Virus record (IMG/VR): IMGVR_UViG_3300011445_000018
Location: 8,896 to 72,895 of that record
Strand: one strand, 5' to 3'
From: a virus
Length of the DNA: 64,000 bases
Part shown: piece by piece, positions 30,274 through 56,022 of the stretch
Position numbering within the stretch: the stretch's first letter is position 1
Layout: the number at the start of each line of letters is the position of its first letter
The notes under the pieces: model-generated
What the model saw: only the letters and a program-made list of their open reading frames with translations
Databases searched by the model: none
Told to the model about the DNA's origin: nothing
Made by a program: the position numbers and the translations under genes

Positions 30274-31022
30274 TATGACGGCTCCATTGTTACAATTACC
30301 ACACAATCATCAGCTTGTTTTTTACTTCCACTCAAAATACCAAAGCCATTTTCACCCCAATCTCTCCAACTATTTCTAATTATTAGGTCGTGACTTACCA
30401 AAACCAATCCCGCCCCTGTTACCTCGTGTCTCCACCAATCATAGCCATCCGCAGTAGGTAGGTCAGCTAGGATGCAACTACCTCGCTCCTCCCATTCCTC
30501 AATGACAAAGAATTCCCTAACAATATTTTTCTTCGCACTTAGCTTATTTGGTTCAGTGAAATAGGAACGTTGAATGGCGTTATCAGGCCAATCACTAGTT
30601 AGATTGATTCCGTCAACCTTTAACCTATTAAGAGCTTGGCTACCCCAACCACCACTGTTGGAGAAGTTCTTAATTGGTGCTCCACAGGACGCCGGACTAT
30701 AGCTTACTACTTGACCTGTTTCTACCAAACGAATTATTTCGCAACAATGCGTTGGAGCGTTCACCCAACAATAGTTTGTGCTCGCTTGATCCTTATGGGG
30801 GAGGCCCATTTCGTTACACAGATCAATTAAGGTGGCTTTATCTTTCTGCTTTTGGCGAATTATGTCATCCCAATCCTTTTCGGGAATGCGTGGGATACCT
30901 AGATCGCCAAAACGTTTACACAATCCCTTTTCCTGGGCATCGCGAAACATACCATAATATCCTCTCCTACCTTGGTCAAGGAAATTTTGGTAGTTATTGT
31001 CATTAATTACGGGCATTGCCAT
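30273..31022 (-). CDS. papain-like (C1) cysteine protease
   Basis: Catalytic set DQ....YCW, H in WWRHEV, and RNSW..WG..GFG. Confidence 0.85.
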   Translation of the reverse strand: MAMPVINDNNYQNFLDQGRRGYYGMFRDAQEKGLCKRFGDLGIPRIPEKDWDDIIRQKQKDKATLIDLCNEMGLPHKDQASTNYCWVNAPTHCCEIIRLVETGQVVSYSPASCGAPIKNFSNSGGWGSQALNRLKVDGINLTSDWPDNAIQRSYFTEPNKLSAKKNIVREFFVIEEWEERGSCILADLPTADGYDWWRHEVTGAGLVLVSHDLIIRNSWRDWGENGFGILSGSKKQADDCVVIVTMEPS

Positions 31023-31042
31023 ATGTATATCCTAACCATAAT

Positions 31043-31795
31043 TTATTGAGTTTTGAACTGCTCCAAAAGAGCTAATGTTTCTTCGATGCTCATTGGCAAA
31101 GGGCCGCTGAAACCTTTCCTTCCATCGCTGATAGCAATCCATGGTAAGGTTACAGCGGTTGGCCTTATTTTGAAATACGCATCGGTTAAAATAGTATTTG
31201 TATTGCGAAACATCTCTTTGGTATAGTCATCATCCCAAATGCGAAAAGCTGGTTGGCCATCTAGCTTACCGCAATTTAGATTACACCACTTCAGAATTTT
31301 GCTAGAGACGAAGATGTTTCTTTGTGGAAGTGGTAGCGTTCCGCTACCACCGGCCTCGCGAAGCATAAGGACGGTTAATACGTTTGTTGGGAAGGGGACA
31401 TCGGTAACGGGTGGATCAATTGGGGGCTTTGGCGGAGTAGGGCCTATTGGCCCTACTATTTTGAATGTTGCATCGACCTTGCGAATTGGACCATCGATAA
31501 CATCAAACGTCTGATCGTTGACTGTTATTTTTCTTAATGGAATAATGATACATTCAATTTTATATGTTCCAGCGTTCCCCCAAATAAATAATTTGTTTCC
31601 AACCGTTTCTGACTCAAGCGTACTTGGTACGCTCCACAGGTTGGTTCCGTTTGGACCATCTGTTAATGTTGCTACTATTTTCTTACCAACAGGCGTTTCA
31701 TTTGGAACTGATATTTCTTCAGAATGTATGTTACTCGTTAAAAATAACAAAAAAAGTACGATTTTAGCACAGTTTTTTGACAAACGTTTTATCAC
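31043..31795 (-). CDS. exported protein: signal peptide, Ig-like domain, Pro linker, thioredoxin-like C-terminus
   Basis: RBS AAGGAG before GTG; IVLFLLFLTS; PTPPKPPIDPP; LPW...GPLP. Confidence 0.55.
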   Translation of the reverse strand: MIKRLSKNCAKIVLFLLFLTSNIHSEEISVPNETPVGKKIVATLTDGPNGTNLWSVPSTLESETVGNKLFIWGNAGTYKIECIIIPLRKITVNDQTFDVIDGPIRKVDATFKIVGPIGPTPPKPPIDPPVTDVPFPTNVLTVLMLREAGGSGTLPLPQRNIFVSSKILKWCNLNCGKLDGQPAFRIWDDDYTKEMFRNTNTILTDAYFKIRPTAVTLPWIAISDGRKGFSGPLPMSIEETLALLEQFKTQ

Positions 31796-31891
31796 TTTTT
31801 CTCCTTTGTTAATAAGAGGGTCCATACTAGTATACGCAGTTTTCATTGAAAAATTAACTAAAAAATTTTTGTCAAAAAAGTGTGCTAAAAT
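31761..31891. repeat. inverted pair of 24-bp TTTGTCAAAAAAGTGTGCTAAAAT sites
   Basis: Copies at 31761-31784 (reverse, 1 mismatch) and 31868-31891. Confidence 0.85.
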
Positions 31892-32113
31892 CTGAAAAAT
31901 TTTAAAATTTTTCAGTTAGAAATATGTTTCATGACATCTTGCTAAATTTATCATAGACCAGGAACGCTCGTACGCTCGGACCATGAATTATGATACGTGA
32001 ACGCTCGGGCCATAAAATTTCCATATTTCTCGCACAGAATAGGGGGTCCAGCGTTCAGTGAACAGATGTCACTTGGTCGACGGTTGTACACCCCTCCCCT
32101 GGGTAGTGGTGAT

Positions 32114-32433
32114 TAGTTACTAGGCAGCAACTGCCTAGTAACTAGGCACAGGCAACCGATGCTAATTTAACAGGCAGCCTAGTAACTAGGCAACGATTGC
32201 CTATGCTACCACACTAGACAAACCATGCTACATTAACAGGCATGGCATGCAGTGCCCCACGATGGGCCGTGTTGCGTGATACGCTGAACCATGTGCATTG
32301 GACGTGATACGTGGTAACACGCAACACGGGTCACGCTAGGTACTCTACAACCTATTTCGCCCGTGTTGCATGATCGATGGTCAAGCCATACTGGCATACG
32401 TCGCAATCGATCATGCAACACGGGTCACGCTAG
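32114..32433. repeat. palindrome and repeat cluster
   Basis: TAGTTACTAGGCAG-caa-CTGCCTAGTAACTA at 32114-32144; 19-bp inverted repeat 32360-32378/32406-32424; 19-bp direct repeat at 32321 and 32415. Confidence 0.9.
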
Positions 32434-32451
32434 AAGCCTTCCTGAGGCAAC

Positions 32452-32514
32452 ATGAACGATGAACGATGAACGATGAACGATGAACGATGAACGATGAACG
32501 ATGAACGATGAACG
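32452..32514 (+). repeat. (ATGAACG)9 tandem repeat
   Basis: Nine perfect heptamers plus a degenerate tenth. Confidence 0.98.
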
Positions 32515-32704
32515 ATCAACCTGATCAATTATAGTACAGCACTTAAATCTATACGCTGTAACATGTTACATCGACTATGAAACCAAAGCGATCAAGGTGG
32601 TCAAATGTAGTACAAGGGGTATTTATACCCCCTAAACCCACTATATGTGACGTAAACCAAAACGGACTCAGTGTTTGCGACAGGGGTAAAAATAAAATCG
32701 CAAA

Positions 32705-32720
32705 CGGCATGCCTCTTGCT
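32705..32720 (+). promoter_or_regulatory. sigma54-type (-24/-12) promoter
   Basis: CGGCATG-CCTC-TTGCT has exact GG-N10-GC spacing; structured RNA begins near the predicted +1 (~32731). Confidence 0.55.
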
Positions 32721-32734
32721 ACTACTACCATTTC

Positions 32735-32838
32735 GGCTGACTGACCCGACCTTGACTCAGTCGCGTGACGCCCATAGCGTGCACGCGGGGACCGAAAACA
32801 TTTTGTTTTTGGTCGTCAGGATTCACGGGTCGGCGGTC
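32735..32838 (+). ncRNA. structured leader RNA (multi-helix junction)
   Basis: Helices CTGACCCG/CGGGTCGG, CCTTGAC/GTCAGG, CGCGTG/CACGCG and GACCGAAAACA/TGTTTTTGGTC. Confidence 0.55.
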
Positions 32839-33152
32839 AATAAGACATAGAAAGGGACAAACGAACATGCGGGGCTGAGCCAGCCTTAGGCCGATGACAA
32901 AGTGAATCACTAATAACGACCCATGGTAACATGGGGCGGGCGGTTTCAATCCGCAAACTTTCAATCGCTATACGGCTATGCATCATGCGATGCTAAGTGG
33001 AATCGTAAGATAGTCAATCGATTCGTTAGCGGGCGAATTATAGAAACGTTGGGAACACGGTTTGCCACAAGCAATTGTCGTGAAGTGCAAACTATCTATC
33101 AACGTCTGAACGATAGGTTAGTGTGGACCTAGTTGCCCCATAAGGGGACACT

Positions 33153-33470
33153 ATGAACACACAGACCATTATCCAACTTAACAAACTACCTTCGTTGCAA
33201 TCTCTTGACAAGCCAGCACTGGCCATGACAGGGGAGCAAACACGGCAACGGAGTTACCTGGAATCAGTCGCGGATTTGGATGCTACAATTAACAGCATCG
33301 AACGTCGCGTCAAAAGCGAAAAGGTAGCATACGAAAAGGCTACCAATCAACCTTGGAAAACGAGCGATGGCAAATCGCATTTCACGTGCGAACAAGCCAT
33401 CGACCATGCTTACGCGAACAAGTGCAAGTGGGTAAAGTGCACCGGAATCGGTATGATTTGGCACAGTTAA
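33153..33470 (+). CDS. hypothetical early protein
   Basis: RBS AAGGGG; enclosed by a 28-bp stem. Confidence 0.75.
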   Translation: MNTQTIIQLNKLPSLQSLDKPALAMTGEQTRQRSYLESVADLDATINSIERRVKSEKVAYEKATNQPWKTSDGKSHFTCEQAIDHAYANKCKWVKCTGIGMIWHS

Positions 33471-33507
33471 CACTTTTCGGGGCAACTAGGCCCATACTAA
33501 CCTATCA

Positions 33508-33563
33508 GGGGATGGTTGCTTTGGCTGTTTTAGCCTGTTAAAATGTCCAAGGGAGCCATCCCC
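33508..33563 (+). ncRNA. hairpin carrying the antisense of the repeated motif
   Basis: GGGGATGGTTGCTTTGG pairs with CCAAGGGAGCCATCCCC. Confidence 0.6.
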
Positions 33564-33580
33564 ACAAACAAGGAAACCAC

Positions 33581-33787
33581 ATGAACGGTAAATGGTATAA
33601 AGGTAACAATGCATACTACTTTGTGGACAATGAAAATTATGCCTATCGTGTTTGGGAAAATGGTAACGTTATGGGAATGTCCGAATACGACGCCACTAAT
33701 CTAATACGCGGATTGTGCACTGAGATACCTTGTCCGGCATTCGGTGCAAGTGCTTTGAAAGATTTACAACGTCTATTGGAGCAATGA
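33581..33787 (+). CDS. hypothetical protein
   Basis: RBS AAGGA. Confidence 0.75.
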   Translation: MNGKWYKGNNAYYFVDNENYAYRVWENGNVMGMSEYDATNLIRGLCTEIPCPAFGASALKDLQRLLEQ

Positions 33788-33837
33788 TGACAATCGCAAT
33801 CCTCCTCGTGCTTCTAGTCTTGTTACTTCTAGTCTGA
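33787..33837 (+). CDS. 16-aa hydrophobic micropeptide MTIAILLVLLVLLLLV
   Basis: TGATG overlap with the upstream stop; GGAG upstream. Confidence 0.5.
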   Translation: MTIAILLVLLVLLLLV

Positions 33838-33874
33838 TTTTCGGGGCTTTTGATAAAGCCCCATAGCAACCATC

Positions 33875-34086
33875 CCTAATACACGAGTATTGGCTTTGAG
33901 TAACAATCGGGGCTTGCCACGATTTGTTAACTCTAGCTGATTCAAAGCACACGAACTAATCCAATTAGGTCAATTGATATTGTTAACAACCCTTGCGGCT
34001 TAAAGTGCTATTGAATGGTACGGAAGGACGCAACGTTGCCAACGCGATATGGCTTAGCGTAACGAAGCCAATACTCGTTTGTTAGG
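33875..34086 (+). ncRNA. structured ncRNA cassette A
   Basis: 23-bp closing stem, internal helices, no ORF, motif on both sides. Confidence 0.65.
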
Positions 34087-34118
34087 ATCAACCATCCCCA
34101 ATTACAGGAGCTATTACA

Positions 34119-34418
34119 ATGCTCAAGTTTGTTGACATCGGTCGCAAAGGCTATTTGGTAATTGCCGAAATTAGCCCAGATGACAAGTTATGTCGATCCA
34201 TTGGCTTTCTGGACTTAACATCGCCGATCAGACCAATGGCGACCGTTGCCGCCGACTATGTCATGGACACAGTCAATTTGTTAAATGAACGAATTGCCAG
34301 ATTGCCGCCGTTCATACAACAAGCCATTGTGCCAATCGTTCGCCCGATCACCGATCCACAATTCGTGCAAGAATGGCACTACATCGAAACCAGCGAGCCA
34401 TTGTCCTTGTTAAATTGA
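34119..34418 (+). CDS. hypothetical protein
   Basis: Motif followed by RBS AGGAG. Confidence 0.75.
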   Translation: MLKFVDIGRKGYLVIAEISPDDKLCRSIGFLDLTSPIRPMATVAADYVMDTVNLLNERIARLPPFIQQAIVPIVRPITDPQFVQEWHYIETSEPLSLLN

Positions 34419-34485
34419 ACAAATGCCCGGTCAGCCAGGGGCAATACTGGTTGAAAGCAACCATCCCTAACAGAAAGGACAAATA

Positions 34486-34743
34486 ATGAAAGAGTACGTT
34501 GTGCGTGTTGTTATTCCCGATATTGACAATGACATATTGGGATTGGCAAAACCAATCGATGGAGCATTTCTTGAATGTCTACGCTATGCTGGTATTGTTA
34601 AAATTCACACTTCTGATACTGGCCAAGTATTTGATATTCGTTGCCCAGACGTTGTTAAAATGTCCAAAAATTGGGCAAATGCCAATGCCGACCGCATGAA
34701 AAGCTTTGGCTACAATGCCGTCGCCGCACCAGCCTATGAATGA
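34486..34743 (+). CDS. hypothetical protein
   Basis: Motif followed by TAACAGAAAGGA RBS. Confidence 0.8.
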   Translation: MKEYVVRVVIPDIDNDILGLAKPIDGAFLECLRYAGIVKIHTSDTGQVFDIRCPDVVKMSKNWANANADRMKSFGYNAVAAPAYE

Positions 34744-34810
34744 TTCCCTCCCCGGTATTGTGGGAATTAACAATGCCGGAAGCAACCATCCCTAACAGAA
34801 AGGACGAACA

Positions 34811-35035
34811 GTGGACAAAAGTATTCTTGAAGGTAAGTTGTCCGAAATTCGCAGAATTCGTACAGACAGCAAACAAATGTGGCATCTGTTCGCACGATAC
34901 AAGGATTTGGCCAATTTCACATGTACACGCGAGCCACTTGAAGTTTTCGCGGAAGCTAAAATTAACAAATTGGCCGCCGAATTAACTACTTCGGATTTGT
35001 GTACACTTGTTGAACTACTGACACGTGCAAAGTAA
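34811..35035 (+). CDS. hypothetical protein
   Basis: Motif followed by TAACAGAAAGGA RBS; GTG start. Confidence 0.75.
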   Translation: MDKSILEGKLSEIRRIRTDSKQMWHLFARYKDLANFTCTREPLEVFAEAKINKLAAELTTSDLCTLVELLTRAK

Positions 35036-35103
35036 ATGACCCTTTAACTGGTTGTTAGGATTAACAACCAGAAAGCAACCATCCCTAACAGAAAGGTCAA
35101 ACA

Positions 35104-35307
35104 ATGGTAGTATACTACAAAATAGAATACACCATAACTAATGGTGATTCCGACAAGGAACATCTCTGTCGTAAAATCGTGGGGATACAAACAAGAAAGC
35201 AACATGAATTATTCAAACTAATTCATGAAATGCTTGAAGAAGAACACGATTGTTTTGAAAAAATCACCAATGTTTACATGGAACCGATTACAATTCATTT
35301 GTTATAA
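35104..35307 (+). CDS. hypothetical protein
   Basis: Motif followed by TAACAGAAAGGT RBS. Confidence 0.75.
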   Translation: MVVYYKIEYTITNGDSDKEHLCRKIVGIQTRKQHELFKLIHEMLEEEHDCFEKITNVYMEPITIHLL

Positions 35308-35400
35308 CCTTTAACTGGTTGTTAGGATTAACAACCAGAAAGCAACCATCCCCAAAGCAAGCCCATCGTAATGCCTCCTTGTTAAAAGGGAGAATTTACC

Positions 35401-36816
35401 ATGAGTTCAGTTGACGAATCTGGAAGCGTGCAACGTCTGAATGTCGAAACAAAGCATGTGGTTTTTCACCCGGACTTCCTAGTCCCCGCGATCAATCCAC
35501 GTGATTTGTCCGACTTGCAAGGCGAAACACTGTACCCCGCGATCGAAGCAACAGGGGGTAAGATCACGACGGCCTTGGTGGTCTGGAAACCGGTCAATGA
35601 TCAAGGGGAATTCGACCCCGATCATCCGATCTGGACCAGTGGGAACATTCACGATACCTTGACAGGTAAAGTGTTAGTTATACCACACGGCGAGCGACAC
35701 AAGTATCGCATACTCGTCCAAGGGCACCGTCGGCATTGGTGTGCAAGAAAAGCACTGTCACAACCTGATGTTTGCCCGGCTGAGATGATAAAGAATCTCA
35801 CCAAATTGCCGTGCAATGAAATCACTTGTACTCAGGAAGTGGCCGAGCGTCTTGCTCTGGATTTCGAGACATCGGAACCAATGCACAATTGGAATGTCAT
35901 CAAGCTGATTTTCGGCTTCATGATGAAGGACATCAAGTACACCGAGATCGCTTTGTTGATGCCGCGAATGCTGTTCCGTGCTTTGCTCAACGACGGTGAA
36001 GCTAAATATAACAAGCTTCTCCGCGAGGCAAAGTCCGGTCGCGATCGCGTTGCTGCCATCAAATCGGCTCTCAAGAACCGGCTTGACCAGCATACCTACT
36101 CCTGTTACCTCTTTGGCCCAGCAATGCAGAAGCAATTGCTTTTGTATTGGCGATACGTGAAAAACGAATTGCAGGACATCGGAGATCGCTATCTGCTCGT
36201 CATGGACATGAAGTACGAATTGGTGCAAAAGCTGCGAACTTTGTACAACGAAGAAGTGAAAGTTCACGGTTGGGCACCAATTACACGAGTGGAAATCGTT
36301 GATGCCAAACCCAACGATTCGCAGAATGTTTCGTACGCTCAGACGCCGGGCAATACCAGTGTCCAAGGACGCTGGTTTGTCATCGAGGGCGGATCAGAGA
36401 ATTTTCGGCAAGCTATGCTGAAAAATATGCTGGTCTATGCCAAGCCAGAAGCGGCAGAGGAAGAGAAAAAGCCACCTACTCAACAAGAGCGGAAGGCAAT
36501 TATCAATTCCACTGCCAGTGGCATCGGCAAAGCCTTCTCCAAGTTCTATGATGAAAGTTTCACGGAAGAAACATCAGGCAAATACTTGGATGCTCCACGC
36601 CTACGCGTCCAATGGGAAGAATGGGCGTTGTTTTCTGAATCGACTCAGAAAGCAATGCTCGATTTCGCCGACCAATGCGATCCATTGGTTAAGGAATTGT
36701 TGGTTGCTGCCACAAGCCAAGCGGCTCCGGGGGCAGCGGCAGAACGTGTCAAGACCGCGATTGCCACGTTGAACGAAGCGTTAAAGCCAGTTACAGTTGT
36801 GTCGAAGAAGAAGTAA
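35401..36816 (+). CDS. divergent ParB/Srx-domain protein
   Basis: NPR...L...I...G.I...LVV and Y.ILVQGHRR ParB-like motifs; RBS GGGAG. Confidence 0.6.
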   Translation: MSSVDESGSVQRLNVETKHVVFHPDFLVPAINPRDLSDLQGETLYPAIEATGGKITTALVVWKPVNDQGEFDPDHPIWTSGNIHDTLTGKVLVIPHGERHKYRILVQGHRRHWCARKALSQPDVCPAEMIKNLTKLPCNEITCTQEVAERLALDFETSEPMHNWNVIKLIFGFMMKDIKYTEIALLMPRMLFRALLNDGEAKYNKLLREAKSGRDRVAAIKSALKNRLDQHTYSCYLFGPAMQKQLLLYWRYVKNELQDIGDRYLLVMDMKYELVQKLRTLYNEEVKVHGWAPITRVEIVDAKPNDSQNVSYAQTPGNTSVQGRWFVIEGGSENFRQAMLKNMLVYAKPEAAEEEKKPPTQQERKAIINSTASGIGKAFSKFYDESFTEETSGKYLDAPRLRVQWEEWALFSESTQKAMLDFADQCDPLVKELLVAATSQAAPGAAAERVKTAIATLNEALKPVTVVSKKK

Positions 36817-36905
36817 CATTCGGCATTGTGTCGGGTGTTTGTTTAACAAACGTCTTTCGCAAGGGGGCGTTACAATGGGCTTGCTAACTCTAACAAGGAA
36901 AACGT

Positions 36906-37121
36906 ATGTCACCACGTTACTATCGTTTATGTGTCAAACGAAATGGCTACTGGCATGAAGTGGCACGAATCGGTAAATCATTAGCCGTTTCAAGAGACAA
37001 TGCCATATTGTTACTTGGCAGTTGGAACGAATTAGACGCAATTTTCGGCATGGGGAATTGGTCTGTTACTACTGACCTTTCCCTCGACTTTGTTACTTGT
37101 GTAACATCTGACATCAATTAA
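36906..37121 (+). CDS. hypothetical protein
   Basis: RBS AAGGA. Confidence 0.7.
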   Translation: MSPRYYRLCVKRNGYWHEVARIGKSLAVSRDNAILLLGSWNELDAIFGMGNWSVTTDLSLDFVTCVTSDIN

Positions 37122-37139
37122 CAAAAAGCAACCATCCAC

Positions 37140-37236
37140 TAAACATTATAGAGTTGAGTTGCCAGTGCTTATATATAAAATGCGATTCGCGTTTATCGCA
37201 TATTAAGTTACTGGCAACTCTACTGTGTGATGTTTG
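37140..37236 (+). ncRNA. long hairpin ncRNA cassette B
   Basis: GAGTTGCCAGT/ACTGGCAACTC, AAACATTATA/TGTGATGTTT and TGCGAT/ATCGCA; lies between two motif copies. Confidence 0.65.
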
Positions 37237-37250
37237 AAAGCAACCATCCT

Positions 37251-37405
37251 AAATGTCACAAAGCTGGGCTGTCAGCTAATGCTGGCCGCACTGCATGATA
37301 ATGTGTAGCAAGGCATTCTGATGCCATTCAGATTGCTATGTGGTTTCGACAGCCATAACAGTGTCGCATGTCTAAAGGCCCTGACAGCCTAGCTTTGTTA
37401 CATTT
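37251..37405 (+). ncRNA. structured ncRNA cassette C
   Basis: 25-bp closing stem AAATGTCACAAAGCTGGGCTGTCAG/CTGACAGCCTAGCTTTGTTACATTT with inner hairpins. Confidence 0.65.
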
Positions 37406-37433
37406 AACCATCCCCAAAAACAAGGAAACAGTC

Positions 37434-37613
37434 ATGCAAGTCGAAGGCACAATTCGATACAAAGACACGTATCGAGATCTTATCAAAGCCTTAATGGGAC
37501 ATGAAGATGTTCTGGATAGGCCCATCATCGTGCAAATTGAATTGCCAGGAGGCATAAATTTCATTCTAGATGATGAAGATAACAAAGAGCGTAGAATATT
37601 AACGTTTGAATAA
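37434..37613 (+). CDS. hypothetical protein (start MQVEG)
   Basis: Motif followed by RBS AAGGA. Confidence 0.7.
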   Translation: MQVEGTIRYKDTYRDLIKALMGHEDVLDRPIIVQIELPGGINFILDDEDNKERRILTFE

Positions 37614-37692
37614 TTTCGCTGGACCTTTGTTAAAAGGTCCAGAAGCAACCATCCCTAAATATGTGGTACTGGGCCATTAGAAAGAATTAACA

Positions 37693-37944
37693 ATGTTTCA
37701 CTTCGACATTACATGTGAAGATGTTCGCCTAATCGCGAACGAAGTAAGCCCAACAAGTGTAAGAGTGACGTTGTACGACAATCTCAGTGGCAAAAGTCAC
37801 TTGCTACAGTCTGTTAGTTTCTGTGATTTTGAAAAAATGGTCAGTGGTATGATTTGTTGCCACGGTGACGTACCAGCGGAAAGTTACCCAGCTTTAGAAG
37901 AAATTCTGAAAGGTTGCCCGAACGAGTGTCGGCCCATTCCTTAG
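37693..37944 (+). CDS. hypothetical protein
   Basis: Enclosed by a 25-bp stem. Confidence 0.7.
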   Translation: MFHFDITCEDVRLIANEVSPTSVRVTLYDNLSGKSHLLQSVSFCDFEKMVSGMICCHGDVPAESYPALEEILKGCPNECRPIP

Positions 37945-38018
37945 CGTCTAGCGTTCGCTGGTCCAAAACAATGGCCCAGTACCGTGTATTTAGGTGCAAT
38001 CATCCCAGGAGACAAATT

Positions 38019-38231
38019 ATGACAACACTGTACCTCGTTGTTAAATATAACGAGGCAAATGTAGCTCGTTATATTGGGTACGTCTTGTTAAATGGTGCAG
38101 CGTGCAAAGTCATGGAAGCATCAATTATGGAAGATGTTAATGCCTACATGAAAATGCATGGCTACACTGAATTCAAATGGCGTGTACCCAAGCAACAATT
38201 GTATCAAATGATCCGTGTAAAGGAGTGGTAA
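38019..38231 (+). CDS. hypothetical protein (start MTTLY)
   Basis: Motif followed by RBS AGGAG. Confidence 0.7.
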   Translation: MTTLYLVVKYNEANVARYIGYVLLNGAACKVMEASIMEDVNAYMKMHGYTEFKWRVPKQQLYQMIRVKEW

Positions 38232-38256
38232 TGATTCTTGACTATAAAGGATCAAT

Positions 38257-38529
38257 GTGATGCTATATTTCGCCCTCTATGAACAATTAAAGGAGATTGT
38301 TCAATCGGAAGTGTTTGAGATCACTTTTGTTAAAAAAGATGGATCAACAAGAGTGATGAAATGTACCCTGACAGACCACCAGGAAACATTACTAAATGGA
38401 CTGTGCCCTGTTTGGGACATCGAGAACAATGGGCACCGCAGCGTTAATCTTAACAAAGTGGTGCAAATGATCTTTAACGACAAAGCCTACACCATAAAGG
38501 ATGAAAAATGGCAGTGTGTTTCACTTTAA
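38257..38529 (+). CDS. WYL_2 / Sm-like SH3 beta-barrel protein (DUF2693-like)
   Basis: ITF.KKDGSTR.M.CTL ... VWD.E..G.RS. Confidence 0.8.
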   Translation: MMLYFALYEQLKEIVQSEVFEITFVKKDGSTRVMKCTLTDHQETLLNGLCPVWDIENNGHRSVNLNKVVQMIFNDKAYTIKDEKWQCVSL

Positions 38530-38576
38530 CATTGTTAGCTTTGTTACTTCTTCTTAGCCTTCTGCTAAAAATATAA
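38508..38576 (+). CDS. 22-aa hydrophobic micropeptide MAVCFTLTLLALLLLLSLLLKI
   Basis: AAGGA 6 nt upstream; single transmembrane-length segment. Confidence 0.5.
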   Translation: MAVCFTLTLLALLLLLSLLLKI

Positions 38577-38629
38577 CGCTGGTCCAGCGTTCATGTATCA
38601 AGGAGACAATAGTCTTTGTTAAATGTATC

Positions 38630-38672
38630 AAAATGGCCGATAATCCGTACATGGATTATCGGCCATTTTTTT
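38630..38672 (+). terminator. intrinsic terminator between convergent operons (probably bidirectional)
   Basis: AAAATGGCCGATAATCC-gtacat-GGATTATCGGCCATTTTTTT. Confidence 0.9.
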
Positions 38673-38745
38673 GTTACCTTTAACATTTCCTTACTTTGTT
38701 AATTTTAACAAAATGCATGATACCTGGCTTTGTTAATTTTAACAA
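38671..38745. promoter_or_regulatory. repeated palindromes TTGTTAA-TT-TTAACAA
   Basis: Copies at 38695-38712 and 38730-38745, with a degenerate copy at 38671. Confidence 0.6.
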
Positions 38746-38747
38746 TT

Positions 38748-38915
38748 CTATTGGTTCTTTTCTAAAACCTCAATACGGCTAATCAGGTTAGTTATCTTGC
38801 ATCCTTCTGCAGCTGCAATCATAGATAACACCATAATGAATATTACTCCTACACACCCCCAATCTTCGCCAATGGTGATTTGGATTTCGTGTTTATGTTT
38901 TATTTCGTCTGCCAT
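38748..38915 (-). CDS. small membrane protein
   Basis: Transmembrane segment WGCVGVIFIMVLSMIAAA. Confidence 0.5.
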   Translation of the reverse strand: MADEIKHKHEIQITIGEDWGCVGVIFIMVLSMIAAAEGCKITNLISRIEVLEKNQ

Positions 38916-38916
38916 T

Positions 38917-39120
38917 TTAAGTCCGTTCTGTGAAACGCCTACGCCTCTTATTACAATGCTTACATTGTACCCCACGAATCTTCTCTAAAGATTTATCCAC
39001 CATTACACTTTTACCTCCGCAAATAGTGCACTCCACATTGTAATAAATACGTGAACCAAGGGAGTATGCAATGCTCTTAATTATCTTATTGCCGCGAACA
39101 TCATTCAGTTTGAATTTCAT
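38917..39120 (-). CDS. zinc-ribbon protein
   Basis: CTICG...CKHC. Confidence 0.55.
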   Translation of the reverse strand: MKFKLNDVRGNKIIKSIAYSLGSRIYYNVECTICGGKSVMVDKSLEKIRGVQCKHCNKRRRRFTERT

Positions 39121-39179
39121 CTCATACCTACAAATTTTTAAAATTTTACATGGTCCAAATGGCATGTTTCAAAGTAACA

Positions 39180-39659
39180 ATTTAGCACACTTTTTTGTCA
39201 ATCATTTTGCACTTTTTTGCACACTTTTTTGACAAAAATTTAAACGCCATTAGCGGCTCGCCTGACGGTGCTCGCCGAAGGCGTGTCGACAGTCGCAGGG
39301 CCGCTCGTTCGCCTACCTGTGTCAATGCGCGGAGCGTTCCCGGTCATCCTACGCGGTACGCCGGTCACCTACGTGGGAACTGACTGGCACGACCTTGGCT
39401 CCTATTCTTCCCCCTACTATCTTACATACTCTCTTTTTTTTCGATGGTCTAAGGATATAGAGAGAGTAGAGTCAGTCAGTAAGGAAACGTAAACGCGCAT
39501 GGCGTAAGGACTTACGTCGATTGGGCATAATTGCCTATCTTACCCATCCCTATCCATATTGCCTATCGTTCACATTTAGCCAAATGGGCACCGTAAAAAA
39601 GTTTGTCAAAAAAGTGTGCTAGAAAGTGAAAATTGCTTGTCAAAAAAGTGTGCTAAAAT
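39180..39659. other. candidate replication origin or control locus bracketed by inverted TGTCAAAAAAGTGTGCTA repeats
   Basis: Reverse copies at 39180 and 39215, forward copies at 39602 and 39637; non-coding core. Confidence 0.45.
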
Positions 39660-39683
39660 GGTGCTTAAACACGTAAGGTAAAT

Positions 39684-40001
39684 CTATGTAGTCAATTTGA
39701 CTACAGTCTTTGGGCTAAATGACATAATTCCGAGCAAAGCACCCTTTTCATAAGTCATTTTCTGCCCGAAATTGATAATCCTAACAAAAGGTAGGTGTAC
39801 AGCGTAACAAAAAACATCTCCTGTACACTGTAAATGCACCAAAAAACCTAAAATATTGAACGCACTTTCCAAATTAAAGCCCAAATCCATGGTATAAATG
39901 CCTCCCATGTCTATCACAAATGGCTCGTTGACAAAAATCTGTAACGTAGTGCTATCCAGTTGCTTAGGTAGGTAACGTGTTGATACATTTATCAGCTTCA
40001 T
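39684..40001 (-). CDS. degenerate dUTPase-fold-like protein
   Basis: Spacing of P....S, I..G, D.G and N.G.....KG......F.P; catalytic motifs absent. Confidence 0.35.
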   Translation of the reverse strand: MKLINVSTRYLPKQLDSTTLQIFVNEPFVIDMGGIYTMDLGFNLESAFNILGFLVHLQCTGDVFCYAVHLPFVRIINFGQKMTYEKGALLGIMSFSPKTVVKLTT

Positions 40002-40239
40002 CTATTAGTTCCTGTAACTTTTTATGAATGGCATTACGTGCCAAGTCAGCTATTCTAGCCATTTGTCGCTCGTTCGAGCGTTCATGGTCCAGCGTTCGCT
40101 CGTTCGAGCGTTCATGTTCCAGCGTTCGAGCGTTCACAAAATATTCCTCCAGCCAATCTAAAATATGGTCCGCTTCATCAATATTGTTGCACGCTAAATG
40201 CACTATACTGCCACATCTCGATATTGTTGGTTGTATCAT
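39964..40239 (-). CDS. hypothetical protein containing a DNA-motif repeat
   Basis: RTL(E/D)HERSNE twice. Confidence 0.55.
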   Translation of the reverse strand: MIQPTISRCGSIVHLACNNIDEADHILDWLEEYFVNARTLEHERSNERTLDHERSNERQMARIADLARNAIHKKLQELIDEADKCINTLPT

Positions 40240-40460
40240 AACAAACGTACAGTTGTCCGACTGTTTTGAATGACAAAATGCTCGAAATACCCCTCTTTCG
40301 GGGGGTAATTAGCGATATGCGACGTTTCAAGTACGCGTAAAATGGCATCAACATCAGTTAATGGAAGAAAAGTGACCCCATAATCCAATGTTAGATCGTC
40401 ATTTTCCCTACAAAAGAGTATTTTATTACTCCTCACGCAACGAAACATTGCCTGTCGCAT
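40236..40460 (-). CDS. hypothetical protein
   Basis: Coupled ORF. Confidence 0.5.
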   Translation of the reverse strand: MRQAMFRCVRSNKILFCRENDDLTLDYGVTFLPLTDVDAILRVLETSHIANYPPKEGYFEHFVIQNSRTTVRLL

Positions 40461-40722
40461 AGTCTTTCACCCGCTCAAGGTATTTATCCTTCCTTAAATT
40501 CGACAAACAGCGTAAAATCTCATCCTCAGGCATACGTATTGACGTCCGATGACGTATAATTGCACAGAATTCCATACATTCCGTAGGATGGAAGAGGAAT
40601 TGCTCTACCGTAGTGTGTTTCGGCTCGTAATCTCTCCACCATAAGCGTGCTACCTCGAAGAAAAAATCCTCAGTTTCCTTTTTCCAACCGTAAATTGCTA
40701 ATCGATCACTGATTTTCATCAT
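40426..40722 (-). CDS. hypothetical protein
   Basis: Coupled ORF ending in L.NLRK. Confidence 0.6.
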   Translation of the reverse strand: MMKISDRLAIYGWKKETEDFFFEVARLWWRDYEPKHTTVEQFLFHPTECMEFCAIIRHRTSIRMPEDEILRCLSNLRKDKYLERVKDYATGNVSLREE

Positions 40723-40792
40723 TGTTCGTTGGTCCCTCGTTCATTGTTAATGTTTTAGCGTTCGCTGGCCCGAGCGTTCACGGAACGCTATT

Positions 40793-41635
40793 CTAGCGTT
40801 CAGCGTTCATGAAATTAGGTTCAGATTGTACAATTTTCATGGCTTCAATCAAACATTTGTTAATTTTAGTACCCTGAAACAAAGATTTTAAACGATTCTC
40901 CTCCGTTCGACCGTAATCGAAATTATAATAACTATTTATTGCATTGTAAGCTCCCCATAATGTGTCCTCTGTGTAATATACCTTTATTTTCTCAATAACG
41001 CTGGTACGAGCGTTCCCTAAACAAGCTTTCCAGTATTCAATGGCCAATGATAATGTCATTTCATGATATGTAAGTGGCCACATACTAGCAATCTCACGAT
41101 CAATATACTTAAATTGCGAAACAACATCATCTACAAATCGACCGACTTTTTCCTCAGCGTTCAAAGTATGGCGAAATTTGCTCATGTATTTACCAATAGT
41201 TGGTAACATATTTGAACAAGTAAGCCTGTAAGGTAAAATGCCAGCTTGAATTGATGTATGTCCATTGTGACCATTCATAAGTAAGAGGTAACATTGAATA
41301 GCGTCCCCTCGTACATTGTACATTTGATCCACTAATTTTAACATACACCAAACACGAGCACCATTGTCCAATGTACCAATACTATCCAATCGACCAATAT
41401 TTCGTGTAACAATTTCCGAGCTAATCAAAGCTAGTATTTCGTTTTGTAGTGGCTTGAATTTCTTCCGACACATTCCTAAGACAGCTCGGTTGTCAGTACG
41501 CAGAATATAGTAATATCCCTTGGCCGCTATTCCGTTTATTAAGAACCCTTGTTCCACGTCAACGATGAAATTAGCTCCTGCTTCCTTGAAAGCTGTTCCA
41601 ACGTTCAAACAATCACTAACATCTATTCCTATCAT
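40793..41635 (-). CDS. DUF932/DUF945-family protein
   Basis: RTD...VLG......LQN, G.L..G.RVW, YLLL.NGH.G, R..C.N.L, RHT, TLWGAYNA. Confidence 0.85.
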   Translation of the reverse strand: MIGIDVSDCLNVGTAFKEAGANFIVDVEQGFLINGIAAKGYYYILRTDNRAVLGMCRKKFKPLQNEILALISSEIVTRNIGRLDSIGTLDNGARVWCMLKLVDQMYNVRGDAIQCYLLLMNGHNGHTSIQAGILPYRLTCSNMLPTIGKYMSKFRHTLNAEEKVGRFVDDVVSQFKYIDREIASMWPLTYHEMTLSLAIEYWKACLGNARTSVIEKIKVYYTEDTLWGAYNAINSYYNFDYGRTEENRLKSLFQGTKINKCLIEAMKIVQSEPNFMNAER

Positions 41636-45392: not shown

Positions 45393-45950
45393 TTAAATGG
45401 TTTTGAGATCCGATACTTTCAGTATCGATAGTAAAGGTACGCCTAGAGCCTCTTCCGCCCCTTCTTCGCGGTCCACAATAACAGCACAAGCTGCAACATG
45501 TAAGTTGTGCGATACTAATATATCACGTACCTTACACAATGATTTACCGGTCGTTGCAACATCATCAATTAGTATCACCCGCTGTCCCGCTTTATATATT
45601 CCCTCGATATCTCGAAGCGAACCATGCATCCTATGCTCAGTTCTAACATAGATCGCATTAATAGCGGCCCAGGTAACGCTCAAACGCTGTAACATCGCTC
45701 CTGTTAGAAATAACCCACTCGTTATTACTCCACAAAAGAGATCATTTCTAGTTAATTCCAAGGAATGTTGCGTAAGTAACTGTGTAAAACACGTAGTGAT
45801 AAGATGTATGGTACGCGATTGTAGCATACAAGGTCGCATGTCAATATAGAAATCGCTTTCCTTTCCACTTGATAGTTTGAATTGCCCCTTTTTGAACCAA
45901 CCATTATCAATTATTGCTTTAATTAGTAGTTCTTTATCTGTCACGATCAA
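45393..45950 (-). CDS. pyrE: orotate phosphoribosyltransferase
   Basis: G.FKLSSG..S.FYID.R; PRPP loop VILIDDVATTG.S; VIVDREEG. Confidence 0.9.
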   Translation of the reverse strand: MIVTDKELLIKAIIDNGWFKKGQFKLSSGKESDFYIDMRPCMLQSRTIHLITTCFTQLLTQHSLELTRNDLFCGVITSGLFLTGAMLQRLSVTWAAINAIYVRTEHRMHGSLRDIEGIYKAGQRVILIDDVATTGKSLCKVRDILVSHNLHVAACAVIVDREEGAEEALGVPLLSILKVSDLKTI

Positions 45951-46772: not shown

Positions 46773-47630
46773 TTACACCCTTTTTGTTATATTTTCACCA
46801 GCGACCATCTTACGCAATTGCAACCATCCCGGATCGTAATTTCCCCAATCATTTAATTCGTTATAATGACAAGCCATTGCAGGATGCTCCAATGGACTAG
46901 CGTGCATGGGATAGTGTCCTGCTAATCGTTCATACAATTTCACATCCTCCTTCAAGTCACGCTTCCCCTCGTGCGTGAGATAGCTAACCCTAGCACATCG
47001 TCCAGCGGATACTTTCGCATAATAAGGTATATCATCAACACTAATTTTCGGACCATTTGGTATGTCATCGACCAGTGGTAAATGCCACTCGCCCCAATCA
47101 ACAGCGTCCGGCGTACTTTGATCGTAGGCCGCTCGGGCTTTGTAAGCTAGATCCTGGAAATGTGGTTCAGCGTCCTTATGACACCGTAAAGCAAACAAAT
47201 TCTCGAAATTAGTAGCAGAAACAATGATGGTGATCCACATCCAAGGTTCGAGTAACCTATTCGCTAATTGCTTGTGTAGGCCAATACGTTCCATTTCTTT
47301 CGCTGCCACAATAGCACTATCTCGTGCTGTTAGCCAATAAAAAAGAGCTAGACGCTTTTGCTCATCGCCTAATTCCTCGGATGCTTGCATACCTTTCTGA
47401 TTCTTTCCCCAATGAATCGGTATAACCGGATCGTTGATCACGCGTTCGATCATCTTTGCTAGAGGTATAGCTCTGCTGCTGGCACTATTACGACTTAATT
47501 TACGGTGAGTCATAATCTCCGAGTGTATGAAACGTGGATACGTCCATTCCATAGTGGTAAGACGACAATTATTTGGTGCAATACTATCTTTGAGAATTTT
47601 AGCTGCGATCACGTAAAAACTCCAATTCAT
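46773..47630 (-). CDS. thyX: FAD-dependent thymidylate synthase
   Basis: PRFIH.E..THR..SRNSASSRAIP; HKQ..NRLLEP; RCARVSY; H.SP.EH. Confidence 0.88.
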   Translation of the reverse strand: MNWSFYVIAAKILKDSIAPNNCRLTTMEWTYPRFIHSEIMTHRKLSRNSASSRAIPLAKMIERVINDPVIPIHWGKNQKGMQASEELGDEQKRLALFYWLTARDSAIVAAKEMERIGLHKQLANRLLEPWMWITIIVSATNFENLFALRCHKDAEPHFQDLAYKARAAYDQSTPDAVDWGEWHLPLVDDIPNGPKISVDDIPYYAKVSAGRCARVSYLTHEGKRDLKEDVKLYERLAGHYPMHASPLEHPAMACHYNELNDWGNYDPGWLQLRKMVAGENITKRV

Positions 47631-52681: not shown

Positions 52682-52833
52682 AACCCTAAAGCGATCTCTA
52701 CCTCTTTTTTCAACTGTTGCATTACGTACTGGTGATCCTCGTTATCACCAACAATTGCCACCATTTCCACTCGTTCGGTTTCGTAGTTACCAAGATTCTT
52801 AACACGTTGATATCTTACTTCTATAATACGCAT
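52636..52833 (-). CDS. hypothetical protein
   Basis: Y.R..NLGNYE..R motif. Confidence 0.7.
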   Translation of the reverse strand: MRIIEVRYQRVKNLGNYETERVEMVAIVGDNEDHQYVMQQLKKEVEIALGLWKTQTCVTENLLKA

Positions 52834-53465
52834 TTCAATCTCTCAAATAATTGCTCTTTGATTTTATGAACATAAGTTGTTGATACACCTGTTTCTTCTG
52901 CTATATCATTTAATACATACCCTCCCTCTATTATACGGTTAATGATAATACGTTCCATTGGATTACGGATTATTTTCTCAATGAAATCACGAAAGTCCAC
53001 GGCCCCTGGTCCATGGTCCTTGTGACCTATTTCATGTGACAGAGTTTGAGATGTCGCTGGATTAGCTTTGCGACCTTTGGTACGTATAACCGATTGGTTA
53101 TAGTAACTTTTACAATAAGCTTTGAGCTTGTTATAGATAGCGGAATTAACATAATTAGTGAATTCCGCTTGCGAGCGTATTGTTCCTTCGTGAACAATAC
53201 GTGTTAATTCTAATAGAGCGATACCTATCGCATCATGACGATTGATATACGAACCAGGAAAGCGTTTAGCTATTTTTAACGCAAGTGGAATATAGCTGTG
53301 TATTATTTGTTCCTTGGTAGCTTTTTGAAATTCTTCAGAACTTATGGAATCATATCTCCGATAGATCCCCGCCACATAATCTTCCTTACTTATGGAGTGA
53401 AAATAGGGACCTGGGGAACATCCCCAGGCCCCTGGCTCGGACAATCTCAAGTCATGATTGCACAA
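52821..53465 (-). CDS. sigma70-family (ECF-like) sigma factor
   Basis: Region 2 Y..LA.KIA.RF...D....AL..L...F..Y; region 4 HTH L.DIAE..GVS...V. Confidence 0.75.
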   Translation of the reverse strand: MCNHDLRLSEPGAWGCSPGPYFHSISKEDYVAGIYRRYDSISSEEFQKATKEQIIHSYIPLALKIAKRFPGSYINRHDAIGIALLELTRIVHEGTIRSQAEFTNYVNSAIYNKLKAYCKSYYNQSVIRTKGRKANPATSQTLSHEIGHKDHGPGAVDFRDFIEKIIRNPMERIIINRIIEGGYVLNDIAEETGVSTTYVHKIKEQLFERLKCVL

Positions 53466-53754: not shown

Positions 53755-54234
53755 TTAATTTGTTATGTTAACTGTTTCACTTAACAATTCTTCTGAAAGC
53801 TCGACCCAGCGATCAGCGGCACTTTTTAATTCCTTATGTATGCCGCAACTCATAACGATGACTTTTACACCTTTCTCTTTGATGGAGTTAACAAGTGGTA
53901 TGCATTCCTTGTTCGACATGCCTAGTATAAGCGTATCGATTTTACCATTGGTAACTAGATTTATAATGTCAACACAAAGTCCGAAAGACCAACTGTACCA
54001 TTGACCTACCTCCATGTCTTTGTATCTAGGTTCAAAGCCAATATGGTGTAGGTAAGCTATGAACTTCGTGGCATTCTTATTGATCTGTGTGCCATAGGCC
54101 GCTGCACGAACAATTTCTCCGAAGTCTTTACATTTGGTGTAATATTTTTCGTAATCTAATTTTCTACCAGACCATTTTTTGTTGATACGAAAGAATTGAT
54201 CCCCAATATCAACGAACACCCCAACGCGATTCAT
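53755..54234 (-). CDS. NYN/LabA (PIN-fold) domain protein, degenerate
   Basis: VGVFVD, D...L, PL...IKE.G.KV.V, EL...AD. Confidence 0.75.
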   Translation of the reverse strand: MNRVGVFVDIGDQFFRINKKWSGRKLDYEKYYTKCKDFGEIVRAAAYGTQINKNATKFIAYLHHIGFEPRYKDMEVGQWYSWSFGLCVDIINLVTNGKIDTLILGMSNKECIPLVNSIKEKGVKVIVMSCGIHKELKSAADRWVELSEELLSETVNITN

Positions 54235-54291: not shown

Positions 54292-54819
54292 CTATTGCGT
54301 TAATTCTAAATTAACATTCCCTATGCCATAATCGCCTGCTTTTACAACAATTCCATCATTTAATTTACTTATTTTTACAGCTTCATTTTTATCATTTCTT
54401 ATCGACGCTACCTTAATAATATCGTCATTGATAAAAAATGCTTCATTATTAATAAAAGTAAATGAACCATTTTCAAATGTAATATTGTTCACTTGTCCTT
54501 TTGCAGTTCCATTTTGACCATGAAAAATTATATACAAATTAGTATGACAATTGTTAATCTTATACTCACCTATTGACGAAAAGAAAAAGGTTTCAGGTAT
54601 TTCATATCTACCTCTACCGTTACACTTCTTGCACATAATGATTGTTGGTAACGATTGATAAATACCTGTCTCATTGCAATCATTACAACGCATCATACGT
54701 TTGGGTAATTTTATACCTAAAGATATTAATAACCATCTTTGTTCTTCAATAGTTAAGCTAAAGCCATGTGTATGTTTTTCAATAATTTCGTTTAAATCAA
54801 TCCTTACAATGTTTTGCAT
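54292..54819 (-). CDS. hypothetical protein with a DnaJ-type zinc finger
   Basis: CNDCNETG...CKKCNGRG. Confidence 0.6.
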   Translation of the reverse strand: MQNIVRIDLNEIIEKHTHGFSLTIEEQRWLLISLGIKLPKRMMRCNDCNETGIYQSLPTIIMCKKCNGRGRYEIPETFFFSSIGEYKINNCHTNLYIIFHGQNGTAKGQVNNITFENGSFTFINNEAFFINDDIIKVASIRNDKNEAVKISKLNDGIVVKAGDYGIGNVNLELTQ

Positions 54820-55634: not shown

Positions 55635-55635
55635 T

Positions 55636-56022
55636 TTATTTCCACACATTTAAGAACGTGTACCAATTCGCTGGTCTAAATAATTTCTGATACTCGAATT
55701 CACTTGCTGCTGTTACGATCCATATACCTATACCTTTGGCCGCTAGATGAGGAAAAACATCCAATTGAGCAGCCGTAAAGCGATAGGCTAAAGGGTTCTT
55801 TACTTCTATCCATCTGGCACCATGTCTAGAGTGAGCACAATATAAGTCAGGTAACCCCATGCAGAATTCATTACCATGTGTTTCGATAACAAACCAATCC
55901 TTTATTTTTAACATATCAACGAAATCGTTTTGTATAATACGTTCCGGCCCCGTGACCCCTGCTTTAGGACCGCGTTTCCTGGCTGTTGGTCCGGGGATAC
56001 CTAGTTCATCGAACAAAGTCAT
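55636..56022 (-). CDS. VRR-NUC / Holliday-junction-resolvase-like nuclease
   Basis: E..IQ, G.PDL, WIEVK, T..Q. Confidence 0.85.
   Translation of the reverse strand: MTLFDELGIPGPTARKRGPKAGVTGPERIIQNDFVDMLKIKDWFVIETHGNEFCMGLPDLYCAHSRHGARWIEVKNPLAYRFTAAQLDVFPHLAAKGIGIWIVTAASEFEYQKLFRPANWYTFLNVWK

Follow-up and report, generated by a model that had tools for sequence, protein, structure and literature searches.

We analysed a 64,000-nucleotide (nt) stretch of viral DNA (the window), which comprises bases 8896-72895 of the 72,895-bp linear viral contig IMGVR_UViG_3300011445_000018, about 80% complete, and within it a plus-strand operon in whose gene junctions a short word, GCAACCATCCC (the motif), is repeated. 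The virion genes of this phage, i.e., tape measure, portal and large terminase, are on the minus strand, and the genes for replication and nucleotide metabolism encode a DNA polymerase, a helicase, a ligase, a thymidylate synthase, a DHH phosphoesterase, ParB-like proteins and an HNH endonuclease. The part between the virion and the replication blocks is taken up by a run of small genes on the plus strand. The operon spans about 6.8 kb and has its own promoter-like element and one canonical terminator. It should be noted that every functional statement made here is inferred from one genome. Open reading frames (ORFs) are given with their lengths in amino acids (aa), a unit is called clamped when a long-range helix encloses it, and the features of the operon are as follows.

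31869..31891, plus strand: promoter-like 23-mer with a TG-extended TAAAAT -10, at the operon head; one of six copies
33112..33506, plus strand: clamped unit 1, a 28-nt helix (33112-33139/33479-33506; 26 Watson-Crick, 1 G-U, 1 A-C; duplex -49.4 kcal/mol) around the 105-aa ORF 33153-33470
33508..33563, plus strand: hairpin with the antisense motif copy; 5' arm 33508-33524, 3' arm 33547-33563 holding the degenerate copy 33552-33562
33866..33876, plus strand: motif copy, 3 nt past hairpin 33843-33862, followed by the 5' arm of unit A
33875..34086, plus strand: non-coding unit A with a 22-bp closing helix (33875-33896/34065-34086); 235-nt fold, z -4.75
34088..34098, plus strand: motif copy TCAACCATCCC, 1 nt past unit A; start codon 34119 is 20 nt on
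34457..34467, plus strand: motif copy; start codon 34486 is 18 nt on
34782..34792, plus strand: motif copy past hairpin 34752-34779; GTG start 34811 is 18 nt on
35041..35088, plus strand: junction module, copy 1, with hairpin 35048-35071 and motif 35075-35085
35308..35355, plus strand: junction module, copy 2, with hairpin 35315-35338 and motif 35342-35352
35356..36885, plus strand: clamped unit, a 31-nt helix (35356-35386/36855-36885; 26 Watson-Crick, 3 G-U, 1 A-C, 1 other; -46.5 kcal/mol) around the 471-aa ORF 35401-36816
37128..37138, plus strand: motif copy GCAACCATCCA, 6 nt past the stop of ORF 36906-37121, followed by unit B
37141..37235, plus strand: non-coding unit B, a 26-bp rod hairpin
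37240..37250, plus strand: motif copy in a 14-nt single-stranded linker between units B and C, unpaired in the minimum-energy and centroid structures
37250..37406, plus strand: non-coding unit C with a 26-bp closing helix; 297-nt fold of B plus C, z -8.8
37404..37414, plus strand: degenerate motif copy TTAACCATCCC, overlapping the end of unit C; start codon 37434 is 19 nt on
37645..37655, plus strand: motif copy past hairpin 37619-37642; its last two bases open the next clamp
37654..37994, plus strand: clamped unit, a 25-nt helix (37654-37678/37970-37994; 22 Watson-Crick, 3 G-U) around the 83-aa ORF 37693-37944
37996..38006, plus strand: last motif copy GCAATCATCCC, 1 nt past the clamp; start codon 38019 is 12 nt on
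38630..38669, plus strand: canonical intrinsic terminator, an 18-pair stem followed by a T run; operon end

The repetition of the motif, which the initial annotation had reported, proved to be real. At no more than one mismatch, GCAACCATCCC has 12 matches in the window, compared to 0.68 +/- 0.84 expected, and none of 100 shuffles reached 12. The count over the whole 72,895-bp contig gave the same 12 matches, a single one of them antisense, with zero matches for the reversed-pattern control. Ten of them are sense copies in the operon (33866, 34088, 34457, 34782, 35075, 35342, 37128, 37240, 37645 and 37996), and the sole antisense copy is at 33509-33519. Two degenerate sense copies, GGAGCCATCCC at 33552 and the two-mismatch TTAACCATCCC at 37404, raise the operon total to 12; the eleven copies originally counted between 33866 and 38006 are the ten listed above plus the one at 37404. 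Alignment of the 12 operon junctions yields the consensus aaaGCAACCATCCCyAA, in which A..CATCC is invariant. The sites are concentrated in 4.5 kb rather than spread genome-wide, and they keep to non-structural genes and, apart from a rare reverse copy, to one strand.

Ten of the 12 operon copies are located inside a strong helix or 0-4 nt after one, so that the description of nearly all copies as lying directly 3' of a stem is borne out for these, and not for the copies at 34457 and 37128, which are preceded by weak folds only. Downstream, all 12 copies are followed, as had been proposed, by either a ribosome-binding site and a start codon (seven copies) or the 5' arm of the next helix (five copies), and three of the five helix-preceding copies stand before non-coding units. 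The claim that every copy is intergenic and on the plus strand is correct between 33866 and 38006; window-wide it fails, because the match at 46820 lies within the thymidylate-synthase ORF. That match (46820-46830, plus strand), an exact copy that runs antisense to this ORF, lies outside the operon without the usual flanks and is perhaps due to chance.

Between the promoter-like element and the terminator, each unit ends in a helix, which is either a local hairpin or of the enclosing long-range type. Five units close with a local hairpin (8-10-pair main stem, -13 to -16.5 kcal/mol, z -2.8 to -4.8). In six cases a long-range helix (22-31 nt) surrounds a whole unit; three of these units hold the ORFs of 105, 471 and 83 aa, and the other three have no credible ORF. 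A custom scanner detected 10 inverted repeats of at least 22 nt in the contig, compared to 0.17 per shuffled genome; five of these are in the operon, and the sixth operon helix (37654-37994), which the scanner misses owing to three adjacent G-U pairs, is known from a repeat search. The arm sequences of the six long helices have nothing in common, suggesting that pairing, and not sequence, is kept. A transposon with terminal inverted repeats and target-site duplication was rejected, given six helices with no common arm sequence.

In the six long helices and the antisense hairpin taken together, there are 13 G-U-type versus 2 A-C-type mismatches on the sense strand (binomial p = 0.007). This bias is indicative of folding that is specific to the sense strand, in agreement with the sense-strand action attributed to the element initially. 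The outer ends of the helices fall -2 to +4 nt from the ends of the motif; since they abut or overlap it, the motif must be inside the folded transcript.

The motif is also exposed. In local partition-function folding of the operon, the probability that all 11 nt are unpaired is at or above the 89th percentile for 10 of the 12 copies. The exceptions are the copy at 33552, which is masked (10th percentile), and that at 34457 (59th percentile), the first bases of which are able to form a weak fold with TGGTTG at 34448-34453. In the 235-nt (z -4.75) and 297-nt (z -8.8) folds, the copies are single-stranded linkers between rods. The spacings are fixed, as well: the distance from the motif end to the start codon is 18-20 nt in six of the seven gene-preceding copies and 12 nt in the seventh, the distance from the helix inner end to the start codon is 13-14 nt in all three clamped genes, and the stop codon is 31-39 nt from the motif in the five hairpin units. 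A T run comes after the terminator of the operon but after none of the 12 junction helices; intrinsic termination at the junction hairpins was rejected on this ground. No sigma70-like site overlaps a motif copy, and the 23 promoter-like matches in 31000-41000 compare to 21.9 in shuffles. ECF-type and sigma54-type readings of the motif were set aside on spacing and by eye. Rfam gave only two sub-threshold chance matches in 31500-41000, and the tRNA scan gave none.

The genes between these junctions are unrelated to each other. Among the 12 operon proteins there is no paralogy (best E = 0.38), and tandem gene duplication as the source of the repeats was rejected accordingly. Family matches were found for the last ORF only (38257-38529), to two PHROGs of unknown function. 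By contrast, the junction modules share 76-98% identity, with homology lost at the edges of the motif. For example, 35041-35088 and 35308-35355 are 98% identical between unrelated flanking genes and diverge right after the motif (...ATCCC). The junctions at 34453, 34778 and 35071 have motif, ribosome-binding site and start codon in common and a different hairpin each. Alike junctions next to unrelated genes suggest that the junctions are maintained or exchanged independently of the genes. Together with the G-U bias of the sense strand, the lack of paralogy suggests that the element is more than a by-product of gene duplication.

The reverse complement of the motif was indeed present only once, upstream of the operon copies. 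It is the outer 5' strand of the hairpin 33508-33563 (23 pairs, -32.8 kcal/mol, z -4.83), the 3' strand of which is built as an ordinary junction, i.e., a hairpin half followed by the degenerate motif, 18 nt before start codon 33581. Two further observations of the initial annotation were correct: the arm pairs imperfectly with its own partner (14 Watson-Crick pairs, 2 G-U pairs and 1 mismatch among 17), and its segment 33508-33522 is perfectly complementary to 35339-35353 over 15 nt. The better fit of the 5' arm to the consensus amounts to three changes, all in the 3' arm, two of them transitions after which a G-U pair still forms; a sign calculation gives a probability of about 1 in 8 that a single arm collects all three by chance, which is not significant. 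We read this hairpin as a junction with a masked motif.

Tentatively, as a possibility that we favour without calling it probable, we interpret the motif as a junction signal at the level of RNA, i.e., as a word that lies exposed between stable helices and would be read by a sequence-specific factor. The protein-bound processing signal, listed in the initial annotation as an alternative, comes close to this. The layout, the strand-specific folding, the accessibility of the motif and its fixed spacings are observed; binding or cleavage by a factor, and the identity of that factor, we infer. Enrichment confined to the operon, accessibility, fixed spacings, the lack of T runs and the mosaic modules all argue for a junction signal. 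So does the presence of phage genes for a DHH phosphoesterase and an NYN-domain protein, the latter of which might be a single-strand RNA nuclease that reads the motif. These belong to a set of RNA- and nucleotide-turnover genes that comprises the NYN protein, the DHH phosphoesterase, a phosphoribosyl transferase and the thymidylate synthase.

53755..54234, minus strand: NYN-domain protein, 159 aa (PF01936, E 2.1e-19, 70.9 bits compared to a cut-off of 24.2)
54804-55649, 45393-45950 and 46773-47630, minus strand: the other three loci of the RNA- and nucleotide-turnover set (DHH phosphoesterase, phosphoribosyl transferase and thymidylate synthase)

The sense RNA of the operon would then contain a modular junction element, with the motif as its conserved single-stranded core. 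The transcript would extend from about 31869-31891 to the terminator at 38630-38669 and carry, as its units, at least nine small ORFs that are unrelated to each other, along with three folded units that are non-coding. Each unit would be closed by a local hairpin or by the 3' arm of its enclosing helix, followed by the motif as a linker and then by a ribosome-binding site or a helix. The reader would most likely be an endoribonuclease and otherwise an RNA-binding protein, with the phage NYN protein and host enzymes as candidates. By cutting or marking the polycistronic RNA at the junctions, it would give rise to helix-capped units with stability and translation set individually. With its copy masked by the antisense arm, the junction at 33552 would be exempt. 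Since the junctions are alike and the cargo is unrelated, the junctions may double as recombination seams, similar to PeSL and SAS elements.

The nearest structural analogy is provided by the RNase III stems that flank rRNAs, long-range helices of about 25 bp that enclose a unit in a polycistronic transcript; the RNase III sites of the T7 early operon are comparable, and products capped by such helices would be stable. The difference is that the helices described here, known from predicted folds, enclose cistrons and non-coding units, with a conserved single-stranded word between them. The nearest working analogy is T4 RegB/S1, the target of which is an 11-nt single-stranded site, intergenic in early mRNAs and read by a phage endoribonuclease (PMC1702504). 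The T4 site, GGAG, coincides with the Shine-Dalgarno sequence and has an A-rich tail behind it, and an mRNA cut there is inactivated (PMC1702504); the word described here is an 11-nt intergenic one, predicted to be single-stranded. If the word is read on RNA, the operon would illustrate how a phage can govern many unrelated accessory genes, in their stability and translation, by one reusable signal, which would help explain how ORFans are swapped without regulatory rewiring. Should the word be a seam or a promoter and nothing more, it would add one more lineage-specific case to the junction motifs of T4-type and Cluster K phages.

A more far-reaching form of the RNA-level signal, which we consider improbable, would be an undescribed system of mRNA punctuation. 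In such a system, early genes and small RNAs would be set off by RNase-III-sized helices, one word would be cut or marked, possibly by the phage NYN nuclease, and the hairpin-masked first junction would be exempt or switchable; in the boldest form, the anti-motif would open and pair with a chosen junction. What is distinctive here is the combination of a conserved single-stranded word with six unit-enclosing helices that show the sense wobble bias and with non-coding units in gene slots. To our knowledge, individual enclosure of cistrons by long-range helices is not an mRNA architecture of described phages, although no literature search was aimed at this point.

Several points weigh against a junction signal read on RNA. 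The G-T wobble bias fits folding of top-strand single-stranded DNA equally well. A requirement for an 11-14-nt word is not known for the ordinary RNases E, Y and J, and therefore a dedicated reader must be postulated; what links the NYN protein to the motif is its presence in the genome. Cutting of hairpin-type units would leave an unprotected 5' leader, and the copy at 46820 does not fit in with such a signal. Scans of viral contigs, metagenome contigs, genome contigs and cultured phages revealed no relative that carries the operon. In addition, no RNA run is on record among the 24 runs listed with the stretch.

Of the rival explanations, the one that fares best acts at the level of DNA and appears to us unlikely. 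The motif would be the crossover core and the helices would be structure-type recombination sites of an integron- or PeSL-like array of cassettes, with the palindromic 33508-33563, which holds anti-motif and motif, as the head-of-array site and with regulation as a secondary role. The cargo is unrelated and mostly ORFan, the 76-98% identical modules lose their homology at the motif edges, and a unit excised as a circle would bring two arms to flank the motif as they do in the hairpin site. Shuffling of this kind is mediated by PeSLs (PMC2839356), and the junctions are PeSL-like in that stop codon, stem-loop, conserved block, Shine-Dalgarno sequence and start codon are repeated between small ORFan genes, with alike junctions, unrelated cargo and mosaic modules. 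Against recombination as the primary role, no tyrosine recombinase (PF00589) was found in the 72.9-kb contig, about 80% complete, the arms are without integron-type core boxes as judged by eye, and the fixed spacings from helix and motif to the start codon point to a role in expression.

Decidedly improbable is a phage-specific promoter that would give each unit its own start, with the host RNA polymerase redirected by a phage factor. One candidate for this factor is the product of a 214-aa ORF (52821-53465, minus strand), which may be a divergent phage sigma factor judging by its sub-threshold sigma matches (phrog_351, E 3e-4; Sigma70_r2, E 8.2e-4, 15.7 bits compared to a cut-off of 24). The contiguous, oriented and conserved block just past the hairpins is a PeSL-like layout, as well (PMC2839356). 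However, the conserved block of PeSLs is a sigma70-type promoter and their stem-loop terminates transcription (PMC2839356; PMC4122927), whereas here stem-loop, Shine-Dalgarno sequence and start codon recur between ORFan genes with no sigma70-type -35/-10 pair in the repeated block or over any motif copy (31000-41000) and no T run, and six helices surround whole units. If GCAACC were an ECF-type -35, the -10 would be placed on the start codon. The helices pair up to or into the motif, and an RNA that starts downstream would lose the outer pairs; moreover, the operon has a promoter-like element of its own, and the units lack terminators. A search for a T7-type RNA polymerase gave no match, but its control was equally silent, so that this search is uninformative.

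We give little credence to a purely translational operator or enhancer, i.e., an exposed C/A-rich site to which a repressor, ribosomal protein S1 or a G/U-rich small RNA would bind. The accessible motif and the 18-20 nt to the start codon in six of seven gene-preceding copies are what such a site would show, and an action in translation initiation has been proposed for the SAS of Cluster K phages (PMC3203893). The SAS is an asymmetric 13-bp motif of non-structural genes, with nearly all copies oriented the same way and a single reverse copy in several genomes; about half of the copies are preceded by inverted repeats, and its function is given as unknown, with a host or phage RNA or protein suggested as the reader (PMC3203893). 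The motif shares the single orientation, the non-structural genes and the rare reverse copy. However, the SAS includes the Shine-Dalgarno core, 3-7 bp from the start (PMC3203893), whereas the motif ends 12-20 nt upstream of the start, and five of its 12 copies precede a helix rather than a ribosome-binding site, three of them before non-coding units. The arms of the ESAS are conserved in sequence and lend no support to RNA pairing (PMC3203893), whereas the arms described here vary in sequence yet keep pairing, with G-U wobbles. The fixed spacing itself can be explained by common descent of the junction modules.

Very unlikely is a stoperator-like DNA operator, at which a monomeric phage repressor bound to an asymmetric site would block elongation. 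The motif resembles the L5-type sites in its asymmetry, in its position within short intergenic gaps and in its orientation, which is that of transcription (PMC9283540). The stoperators of Cluster A phages, which are oriented asymmetric sites of about 13 bp in short intergenic gaps, occur genome-wide, with an operator at the early promoter and a cognate repressor (PMC9283540). In contrast, the motif sites are within 4.5 kb and no copy is found at the promoter-like element. No integrase was found in the contig, about 80% complete, and no repressor was identified among the ORFs scanned. The strand-specific G-U pairing of motif and anti-motif would have no role in such a system.

The hairpin-caged guide RNA or Dscam-like docking switch, put forward in the initial annotation, is hardly credible any more. 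In this scheme, 33508-33524 would pair with a sense copy, acting as a selector in cis or, in trans, leading to cutting by RNase III; the trans form can be likened to tracrRNA and CRISPR repeats. The targets are accessible, and next to the 15-nt perfect complementarity, the duplexes of the arm with the motif copies have energies of -20.4 to -32.4 kcal/mol. When two molecules are folded together, their ensembles gain 0 to 9.1 kcal/mol in stability over the molecules taken singly, with at least 19 intermolecular pairs in the minimum-energy state for 6 of 10 targets. Distal docking is thus energetically possible, without positive support. The anti-motif is almost always paired within its 23-pair hairpin, with a probability of being unpaired of about 6e-8. 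This very stable local hairpin would be made first during transcription, there is no free toehold (the 5' flank is within the neighbouring clamp), a single guide would have to serve 12 targets, and the duplexes are short (11-17 bp). The three changes in one arm, at about 1 in 8, carry no significance here, either, and Cluster K phages have a single reverse copy too, for which no such role was proposed (PMC3203893). The masked junction remains our reading of the hairpin.

A boxA/nut-like antitermination signal, another alternative in the initial annotation, would consist of one or two promoter-proximal sites with the boxA word followed by a hairpin, and this does not agree with 12 copies at cistron junctions in which the hairpin precedes the word. 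The remaining weight falls to repeats that are homogenised and have no function beyond that.

The relatives of this phage are distant. Its terminase is only about 25% identical, at best, to those of cultured phages, and 12 loci with terminase identities of 46-69% were found. The motif is absent from the stretches fetched for these terminase relatives, the 471-aa protein is encoded in none of the five whole records tested, and the whole records have other repeat families of their own. The contigs of the closest terminase relatives (L126, L127, L128 and L136) stop about 3.8-4.5 kb upstream of the terminase gene, approximately where the repeat-rich operon starts in the present phage. Among the matches listed, the contigs of run X4 that cover the phage also break at junction repeats. 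The repeats may be fragmenting assemblies of this phage group. In viral contigs, the exact 14-mer has only single, chance-like matches among those listed (at least 117 stretches). DNA runs that contain the stretch come from freshwater sediment and groundwater; four of them aligned to it show zero base differences and one insertion, in one contig at 38322, which is no useful variation.

The 471-aa ORF has only two near homologues, of 56-58% identity, and the 90-aa ORF searches gave nothing useful. The 471-aa protein (35401-36816, plus strand) belongs to a very rare family, with 23 representatives among 1.84 billion proteins; none of the 20 members examined has a Pfam match, and a nearly invariant NPR...GHRR pattern runs through the family, which we take to resemble ParB/Srx-type N-terminal domains. 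A 17-codon ORF (33784-33837, plus strand) encodes the peptide MMTIAILLVLLVLLLLV, which is hydrophobic throughout; the ORF overlaps with the stop codon of the 68-aa gene and ends just before a junction hairpin.

The promoter-like 23-mer, TTGTCAAAAAAGTGTGCTAAAAT, has six matches at no more than three mismatches, versus 0 expected (31761 minus, 31869 plus, 39179 minus, 39213 minus, 39603 plus, 39637 plus), and its sequence suggests a promoter. The word was found elsewhere in three unrelated contigs. The copies make up two divergent clusters (31761-31891 and 39179-39659). In the second, they face outward around a GC-rich island of about 360 nt (39240-39600), and this cluster could be an early-promoter or origin region. 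A sigma70-like match (TTGAGT, 16-nt spacer, TAAAAT) is located within unit B (37154-37181, plus strand). Palindromes of the form TTGTTA-N4-TAACAA lie just past the terminator (38696-38711 and 38730-38745) and are the cores of two junction hairpins (35052-35067 and 35319-35334); TGTTAA-type words are among the commonest k-mers of the contig.

The operon leader, about 1.2 kb and poor in ORFs, contains two strong hairpins (32267-32340 and 32360-32436), one of which is a perfect 19-bp stem and each of which is followed by the same word, GGGTCACGCTAG. In the same region there is a tandem array of about 10 units of the heptamer ATGAACG (32438-32527), and dispersed sites with CGTTC/GAACG also occur at 31956-32012, 40050-40140 and 40746-40800. 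The record of a related phage (G001) has an analogous arrangement of a tandem heptamer and dispersed inverted pairs, made from a different word.

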